DNA from: Escherichia coli | GTDB taxonomy: Bacteria; Pseudomonadota; Gammaproteobacteria; Enterobacterales; Enterobacteriaceae | Assembly (NCBI RefSeq): GCF_044647545.1 | Contig: NZ_CP172818.1 | Direction: 5' to 3' (one strand) | Length of the DNA: 64,000 nucleotides | Notes under the pieces: model-generated | What the model saw: only the letters and a program-made list of their open reading frames with translations | What the model was told of the DNA's origin: nothing | The model's database searches: none | Made by a program: the position numbers and the translations under genes | Shown here: piece after piece, positions 32,880-33,188 of the stretch | Numbering within the stretch: position 1 is the first letter of the stretch | How the letters are laid out: each line of letters begins with the position of its first letter

Positions 32880-33188
32880 ATGAAAAAAGTATTAGCTCTG
32901 GTTGTTGCCGCTGCTATGGGTCTGTCTTCTGCCGCCTTTGCTGCAGAAACTGCGACCACACCTGCTCCGACTGCGACGACCACCAAAGCAGCGCCGGCGA
33001 AAACTACACATCATAAAAAACAGCATAAAGCAGCACCTGCCCAGAAAGCGCAGGCGGCTAAAAAGCATCATAAAAATGCGAAAGCTGAACAGAAAGCTCC
33101 TGAACAAAAAGCGCAGGCAGCGAAGAAACACGCCAAAAAACACAGCCATCAGCAACCGGCAAAACCTGCTGCACAACCCGCAGCGTAA
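32880..33188 (+). CDS. asr: Acid shock protein (periplasmic, Lys/Ala/His-rich repeats)
   Basis: 102 aa from [14 protein letters not shown]; repeated [14 protein letters not shown] units. Confidence 0.9.

Follow-up and report, generated by a model that had tools for sequence, protein, structure and literature searches.

The asr gene and its surroundings

Within the window, by which we mean the whole 64,000-nucleotide stretch of Escherichia coli DNA that was analysed, positions 32880-33188 on the plus strand are the asr coding sequence, running from ATG to TAA over 309 nt and encoding 102 aa plus the stop. These bounds coincide exactly with the RefSeq asr CDS of the 100%-identical strain FDAARGOS_497, whose product name is acid resistance repetitive basic protein Asr. 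The protein scores 99.1 bits against NCBIfam NF033636 (cutoff 50), with residues 1-101 covered, and 46.8 bits against Pfam PF06392 (cutoff 24.9). In FDAARGOS_497 the gene is preceded by ynfM and a small KPN_01571-family ORF and followed by ydgU, ydgD and mdtIJ. A first-pass annotation made from the letters alone had named this gene asr, and the RefSeq annotation, the location, the two model scores and the neighbours all bear it out. A 651-nt query around asr found matches with 95-100% identity in 5,422 of the 5,426 complete E. coli genomes, and among the matches listed every one carried an asr annotation. The locus gave no Rfam match. Its features are the following.

32763..32776, plus strand: RstA-box-like site TACATATCGTTACA, which precedes the start codon of asr by 104 nt
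32868..32872, plus strand: Shine-Dalgarno sequence GAGGG, read from the sequence, 7 nt before the ATG at 32880
32880..32942, plus strand: signal peptide (aa 1-21), cleaved between AFA and AE
32943..33185, plus strand: mature Asr, 81 aa (aa 22-102), a low-complexity, predicted disordered polycation
33189..33280, plus strand: asr-ydgU spacer with three hairpins in the RNA fold
33281..33364, plus strand: ydgU (samT), a 27-aa membrane peptide of the asr operon, annotated and translated
33464..34285, plus strand: ydgD, a predicted periplasmic trypsin-like S1 serine peptidase (Pfam Trypsin, Trypsin_2)

[quoted passage not shown] The protein begins with an N-terminal Sec signal peptide that ends in an AXA cleavage site, as is characteristic of the Asr family. 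Across the family M1, A11 and A21 are invariant within this peptide, and G14, S16, S17 and F20 are nearly so. The published N-terminal MALDI fragment of Asr begins at A22 (AETATT...; PMC6782097).

Acid induction of asr is reported to proceed via RstBA (and PhoBR) (PMC10746267, PMC13425233), and asr-samT (ydgU) forms an operon that depends on RstA and acts back on RstB-RstA, with SamT binding RstB (PMC13425233). Induction is strong: according to PMC10746267, asr takes up about 2% of the Ribo-seq reads obtained at pH 4.4, a roughly 1,000-fold increase. The asr gene of Pectobacterium immediately follows rstA-rstB. The site TACATATCGTTACA matches exactly the sequence TACATNTNGTTACA, reportedly the RstA-box consensus of Ogasawara and colleagues (2007), and is the only match in the window at no more than one mismatch (0.22 expected). 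We take 32763-32776 to be an RstA-box-like site on the strength of this consensus. A scan for a sigma-70 consensus at asr found none, a result that fits an activator-dependent promoter and is little informative. Downstream of the gene, the RNA of 33186-33285 folds at -38.7 kcal/mol (z = -2.9), a value matched by none of 200 shuffles.

Publications or annotations already cover the gene, its repetitive and basic character, and how it is processed and regulated, and a feature of this kind is already known. The forward-looking element is confined to the link between the repeated motif, the cleavage sites and YdgD.

The repeat in protein and in DNA

Mature Asr is built from 9 residue types, 94% of the chain being K, A, H, Q, P or T. 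Its entropy comes to 2.69 bits, whereas in 46 long ORFs of the window no 81-aa segment falls below 3.48 bits. The longest exact peptide repeat in the protein is QKAQAAKKH, which occurs twice with a period of 21 aa, or 63 nt. The peptides quoted in the first-pass annotation as repeated units were found at aa 57-66 and aa 78-88.

32976..33032, plus strand: N-terminal box (aa 33-51), weakly resembling the repeat unit
33033..33095, plus strand: repeat unit A (aa 52-72), with core QKAQAAKKH at 33042-33068 (aa 55-63)
33096..33158, plus strand: repeat unit B (aa 73-93), with core QKAQAAKKH at 33105-33131 (aa 76-84)

In a chain of only 9 residue types short repeated words are expected. Repeats of 4-5 aa are common in shuffles, and the DNA as a whole shows no stronger periodicity at 63 nt (0.42) than at other offsets. 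The repeat might on these grounds be a chance by-product of extreme low-complexity composition, with no true duplication behind it. Yet an exact repeat of 9 aa was reached in just 5 of 20,000 composition-preserving shuffles of mature Asr (about 3e-4), and a diagonal with 12 of 15 identities in 1 of 3,000, so the repeat is more than composition. The repeated word is also exactly the invariant motif of the Asr family, E. fergusonii has a longer shared unit (13 residues), and in homologs the unit forms clear tandem arrays, 2 to 7 copies long, that can be detected in the DNA. A chance origin is thus highly improbable, and we therefore conclude that the Asr repeat exceeds what composition alone gives. 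The first-pass description of a coding sequence containing repeated K/A/H/Q-rich units is confirmed by the twofold exact core and by the shuffles.

The N-terminal box is a different matter. In a repeat search, aa 33-51 showed 60% nucleotide identity to the reference repeat copy at a spacing of 57 nt, and its APAK..HHKK segment is conserved in its own right, in single-motif homologs as well. Its sequence similarity to the unit is weak. We regard it as a conserved family box and leave it out of the repeat-copy count.

The two units are much better preserved as protein than as DNA. Units A and B are identical at 13 of 21 residues. Within the core all 9 residues are identical between the copies, and the codons are identical at 3 of the 9. 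At the nucleotide level the units (aa 52-72 versus 73-93) agree at 37 of 63 positions, or 0.52 when measured from motif start to motif start. The longest exact DNA word common to both copies is 11 nt, and Tandem Repeats Finder (TRF) returned 0 rows at a minimum score of 30. This combination of an intact core peptide, mostly different codons, an empty TRF output and short shared words points to purifying selection that kept the core peptide while the DNA drifted. We read the asr repeat as a tandem duplication that arose long ago within the gene: a unit of about 21 aa was doubled, and both copies carry the invariant family core QKAQAAKK(H), with selection holding the core and the synonymous sites free to drift. 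Such drift has left little DNA homology, and copy number has thereby become fixed at two in E. coli.

The family to which this gene belongs shows what the repeat looks like elsewhere. When 27 intact homologs are aligned, invariance beyond the signal peptide is confined to the columns Q76, K77, A78, Q79, A81, K82 and K83, all within the repeat core. A scan of species-representative genomes with the back-translated motif gave at least 120 stretches, and the family statistics come from 83 complete Asr-like ORFs among the matches listed. Exact motif copies per ORF ranged from 1 to 7 in these 83, distributed as follows (all counts among the matches listed).

1 motif copy: 12 ORFs of 83
2 motif copies: 20 ORFs of 83
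3 motif copies: 18 ORFs of 83
4 motif copies: 13 ORFs of 83
5 motif copies: 12 ORFs of 83
6 motif copies: 7 ORFs of 83
7 motif copies: 1 ORF of 83

Among the matches listed the unit period ran from 42 to 108 nt, and copy number differed within genera (Yersinia 1-6, Serratia 1-5, Pectobacterium 2-5, Enterobacter 2-4), some of these genes being paralogs. Nearly half of the multi-copy genes among the matches listed (32 of 71) contained a pair of units with at least 90% nucleotide identity. TRF detected an array of 54 nt x 2.7 copies at 89% identity in the asr gene of Pectobacterium aroidearum, and one of 57 nt x 3.7 copies at 92% identity in an Enterobacter-like metagenome contig. E. coli asr resembles the PF06392/NF033636 family in passing both model cutoffs, in its signal peptide, in its QKAQAAKK core (two exact copies, aa 55-62 and 76-83), in its His/Lys-rich basic body, in its RstA-box and in its synteny with the operon partner ydgU/samT and with downstream ydgD. 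It differs in lying at the low, degenerate end of the family: it has two copies where others reach as many as 7 among the matches listed, and its adjacent-unit nucleotide identity of 0.52 (2nd percentile) compares with a median of 0.82 among the matches listed.

Variable-number tandem repeats (VNTRs) and contingency loci consist of in-frame tandem units whose number differs between lineages. The asr genes of Pantoea, Rahnella, Yersinia and Pectobacterium, in which unit number differs, are VNTR-like in this sense. The first-pass annotation had proposed that the E. coli gene, too, is prone to repeat-number variation, and a hypervariable locus changing by slippage or unequal recombination would be in keeping with a family copy number of 1-7 that differs even between close relatives (3, 4 and 5 in Rahnella; 2, 3 and 5 in Pectobacterium). 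A metagenomic E. coli-like variant, P0004, points the same way, as it lacks 12 nt between two AAACAC words.

The E. coli genomes tell otherwise. A 156-nt query over the repeat region matched 5,422 complete genomes, and in 5,421 of them at least 80% of the region was covered in one place, which excludes loss of a unit. No genome among the 5,422 fell below 90% identity at its best place, which rules out that a 63-nt insertion was bridged by one gapped alignment. Four of the 5,422 genomes had a second match place, a number that includes the insertion-split strain ZYB39 and is an upper bound for tandem duplications reported as overlapping matches. The native span of exactly 156 nt was found in 59 of 59 evenly spaced sample rows. 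All five strains fetched in full (MG1655, EDL933, 2015C-3107, APEC E18006 and GmM066) had a CDS of 309 nt, with both cores invariant and the amino-acid changes (A/T, K86G, A94E) outside them. The sole broken allele found was that of ZYB39, in which an IS66-family element, ISCro1, is inserted near window position 33129.

Two further searches were less informative. The four predicted recombinant junctions (63-nt and 57-nt duplication and deletion), used as a concatenated blastn query, gave low-identity gapped matches in every genome and were non-discriminating. A synthetic allele with a 12-nt deletion (AKKH) returned as its best matches ordinary genomes aligned in two pieces. A single-piece 144-nt match to such an allele was absent from the 12 top-ranked rows, in a search that is unable to count alleles.

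Proteins recorded as E. coli Asr in databases have lengths of 141, 132, 131, 128, 122, 110 and 94 aa. We inspected these as possible repeat-number variants and rejected them all: they have shifted into the +1 frame, for the most part at A5-A6 runs, or are truncations or fusions. The absence of repeat-number variants from this source is weak evidence, as the protein database lacked both E. coli Asr alleles looked up, each in its 102-aa and its 111-aa form.

E. coli asr is thus unlike a VNTR in having no TRF array (0 rows), no long exact repeats (11 nt at most, with unit identity of 0.52-0.59) and no copy-number polymorphism between strains. An exact word of only 11 nt common to both copies makes a poor substrate for slippage. 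We consider it very unlikely that asr is a contingency locus in E. coli, a reading that is largely refuted for complete RefSeq genomes. The proposal of repeat-number variation is therefore right for the Asr family and wrong for E. coli: a comparison of repeat number, which the first-pass annotation had suggested as a check, gives no variation among E. coli strains and a range of 1-7 across Enterobacterales, differing between close relatives. We attribute the absence of variation in E. coli to decay of the slippage substrate there. The E. coli repeat is real but ordinary, and is no source of strain variation.

Long open reading frames across asr

Two long ORFs overlap asr in other frames.

32902..33279, plus strand: off-frame (+1) ORF of 125 aa, most likely a composition artefact
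32892..33176, minus strand: antisense in-register ORF of 94 aa, most likely a composition artefact

Each covers almost all of asr, and both are open in all six of the E. coli alleles examined, as might be expected if one of them were a real overlapping gene. The openness is, on the other hand, fully accounted for by codon composition. When the codons were shuffled so that repeat order was destroyed and the codon set kept, all 5,000 shuffles left the +1 and antisense frames without a stop across the mature region; the other three frames also behave as they do in the shuffles. The mature asr region contains no NTA, NTG, TTA, CTA or TCA codons, so stops cannot arise in the +1 and antisense frames. 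The off-frame ORFs thus follow from the hydrophobic-free amino-acid composition of Asr and not from its repetition. The first-pass annotation had taken the repeats to generate long spurious ORFs; the ORFs are there, but their cause is the codon set.

Several other observations speak against an overlapping gene. In E. fergusonii a stop codon at nt 125 of the gene breaks the +1 frame, 9 of the 16 sites that vary among the six E. coli alleles are third positions of the asr frame, and both ORFs start with TTG. Neither ORF was annotated in any record inspected, and no Rfam or other feature was found for them. Openness beyond composition together with conservation in relatives, the pattern that would mark an overlapping or antisense gene, was not seen. 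We give almost no credence to a second gene here. The ORFs are most likely spurious, and long off-frame ORFs at asr should not be called as genes.

The +1 frame does matter in one respect. It is the frame entered by asr alleles with single-base deletions, which yield the 132- and 141-aa products. Since this frame is open to 33279, single-base deletions at A5-A6 runs give chimeric 132- and 141-aa proteins that are still labelled Asr in databases.

Charge, processing and a candidate protease

Mature Asr has a computed mass of 8.5 kDa and a computed pI of 10.5, and its computed net charge rises from +14.5 at pH 7 to +23.3 at pH 4.5. The rise is due to the eight histidines of the mature protein. 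The literature holds that the charge of Asr underlies its acid-induced chaperone/aggregase activity and its protection of the outer membrane, and PMC10746267, which draws on Ren et al. 2022 and Seputiene et al. 2003, describes Asr as a disordered chaperone/aggregase that supports outer-membrane integrity.

The AlphaFold2 (AF2) model, made with a family alignment, is consistent with a disordered mature protein. Its mean pLDDT is 56.6, low pLDDT being an indirect sign of disorder, and its only helix, residues 2-14, lies inside the signal peptide, the rest of the chain having no secondary structure. The mature chain is thus basic, His/Lys-rich and of low complexity, as in the rest of the family, and it is predicted to be disordered, as the literature also reports. 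Overall, it is very probable that the region is the asr CDS, encoding an acid-shock periplasmic protein with an old, diverged duplication and a disordered cationic product, and that its off-frame ORFs come from the codon set.

Several known systems resemble Asr in part. HdeA and HdeB are small periplasmic acid chaperones, folded dimers that unfold on acidification. Asr is likewise small, periplasmic and protonation-activated, and likewise protects the envelope proteome at low pH. In contrast to HdeA and HdeB, Asr is disordered whatever the pH, by prediction and by published report, and is strongly cationic, repetitive and proteolytically processed; there is no sequence relationship between them. 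Group 3 LEA proteins and hydrophilins share with Asr a hydrophilic, low-complexity, repeat-built, stress-induced and disordered character, and they too are unrelated to it in sequence. LEA repeats are 11-mers that form amphipathic helices. We considered and rejected an amphipathic-helix reading of the Asr unit, since 345 of 2,000 shuffles reach its maximal helical moment, 0.52. A study of a LEA-derived peptide touches the same acid-tolerance circuitry (PMC12871917).

The repeat acquires a more specific meaning from proteomic data. Peaks in whole-cell MALDI spectra have been identified as three Asr fragments (PMC6782097 Table 1), which map onto this sequence as aa 22-58, 59-79 and 80-102. For two of the fragments the calculated monoisotopic masses, 2341.28 and 2401.33, agree with the published values of 2341.2 and 2401.2. 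For the N-terminal fragment the computed and reported masses differ by about 1.7 Da, and its printed sequence has an odd trailing letter. These fragments place one cut in unit A between Q58 and A59 (nt 33053 and 33054) and another in unit B between Q79 and A80 (nt 33116 and 33117). Both cuts fall at the identical position of the two core copies, between Q and AAKK, as judged from a single whole-cell MALDI study.

Deletion of the second processing site reportedly leads to an acid sensitivity like that of an asr null, a result credited to Seputiene and colleagues (2003). Since the core coincides with the cut sites of Asr, the repeat unit is best read, from the published fragments and their mapping onto this sequence, as a processing and functional module. 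Asr might then be a multi-peptide precursor from which His/Lys-rich peptides of about 21-23 aa are released in the acidified periplasm, the copy number of the unit (2 in E. coli, 1-7 elsewhere) setting how many short basic peptides are released. Multi-copy precursors of cationic His-rich peptides are processed at repeated sites. By analogy, the repeated cleavage motif of Asr would yield short basic peptides (aa 59-79 and 80-102), each starting AAKKH. The resemblance to such precursors has a limit, in that the released Asr peptides are only candidates for the active species; the whole mature protein is the alternative.

A possible processing enzyme is encoded next door. PDB entry 7uxg has a sequence matching YdgD (273 aa, E = 5.5e-187). 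After it, the closest relative of solved structure is the glutamyl endopeptidase 1p3c (E = 8.8e-9), a relationship that would be compatible with Gln as the P1 residue. At 47 of the 64 asr loci that have enough downstream sequence, a ydgD homolog (54-80% identity) starts within 700 nt downstream on the same strand, and these linked loci span Enterobacteriaceae, Erwiniaceae and Yersiniaceae. At the 34 loci with good flanks, ydgD was adjacent in 25, while the other genes that flank asr in E. coli are not conserved there (mdtI in 6, ynfM in 1). A 2026 study found that deletion of ydgD lowers acid resistance. In the literature searched we found no paper connecting YdgD with Asr processing, and the searchable literature gave no answer as to which enzyme matures Asr.

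An invariant motif at the cleavage sites, together with asr and ydgD travelling together, suggests a candidate for the Asr-maturing enzyme and offers a testable lead. That YdgD is this protease is a reasonable but tentative proposal. The fuller reading, in which the QKAQAAKK core is a processing module cut after its second Q, Asr a multi-peptide precursor and YdgD its processing enzyme, is possible and at present rather doubtful; within it, the Asr fragments would be the active species. The number of motif copies bore no relation to ydgD adjacency (means of 3.38 and 3.24; Mann-Whitney p = 1.0). In species with two asr paralogs, typically one of the two is linked to ydgD.

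Start of asr and the asr-ydgU spacer

Two copies of the 10-nt word AATGAAAAAA lie 27 nt from each other, at 32852-32861 and 32879-32888. This repetition creates an in-frame upstream ATG at 32853, which opens a 111-aa ORF, and some gene callers begin asr there. The start at 32880 is favored, as the Shine-Dalgarno sequence GAGGG sits between the two ATGs. The regions flanking asr contain the following features:

32505-32624, minus strand: 39-aa ORF upstream of asr, RefSeq "KPN_01571 family protein" (MTHSKMNPFIWVLIILMTLDALRELAGASSILEWLLTLV)
33189-33280: 92-nt spacer between asr and its operon partner ydgU (samT), with three hairpins by RNA folding
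33464-34285, plus strand: ydgD, encoding a periplasmic S1 serine protease

The 39-aa product resembles a small, hydrophobic protein of the membrane. The spacer folds at -38.7 kcal/mol (z = -2.9), and none of 200 shuffled sequences was equally stable. Its predicted hairpins could act as a partial terminator or a processing site, giving rise to separate asr and asr-samT transcripts. The Figure 6A legend of a NAR 2026 paper describes Northern blot probing of asr and asr-samT transcripts.

Frameshifted and disrupted forms of asr

Many database entries named E. coli Asr have a length of 132 or 141 aa. These lengths arise because a single-base deletion moves reading into a stop-free +1 frame that stays open to 33279. 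The places tied to the frameshifted entries are:

33015-33020, 33060-33064 and others: A5-A6 runs within asr

Klebsiella and Salmonella Asr entries include comparable frameshifted forms; the proteins concerned are P0003, P0014, P0021-P0023, P0027, P0052 and P0058. All of these may be either sequencing errors or real pseudogenes. Among 5,422 complete genomes, a single disrupted asr was found, that of E. coli ZYB39, in which the IS66-family element ISCro1 (3116-5815 of locus L002) lies inside repeat unit B, at about 33129 of the window. RefSeq still calls a 119-aa "Asr" there, extending into the IS.

Genomic neighborhood of asr across bacteria

Among the matches listed, a ydgD homolog lies no more than 700 nt past asr on the same strand in 47 of 64 loci (L014-L133), a linkage that spans Enterobacteriaceae, Erwiniaceae and Yersiniaceae; the other E. 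coli flanking genes, ynfM and mdtI, are mostly not kept at these loci. After 7uxg, whose sequence matches, the nearest solved relative of YdgD is a glutamyl endopeptidase. YdgD is a candidate protease for Asr processing.

Pectobacterium asr has no ydgD next to it. In P. aroidearum (L003), a response-regulator gene and rstB (9-1322; RstB equivalog match of 774.6 bits vs a cutoff of 478) immediately precede asr (1501-1854), so that regulator and target are physically linked.

Several of the matches listed show two asr-like loci per species, including Rahnella, Enterobacter sp. Ag1 and JUb54, Serratia and Yersinia (pairs L018/L043, L019/L020, L038/L039, L065/L066, L100/L101, L102/L103, L108/L109 and L128/L129). 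Motif numbers are often unequal between these listed partners, and usually only one partner is linked to ydgD.

Outside Enterobacterales, Chromobacterium (Betaproteobacteria; L048, L049, L132, L133) encodes secreted proteins that resemble Asr: they are rich in His and Lys and contain the QKAQAAK motif, and one of them carries a repeated 15-residue unit.
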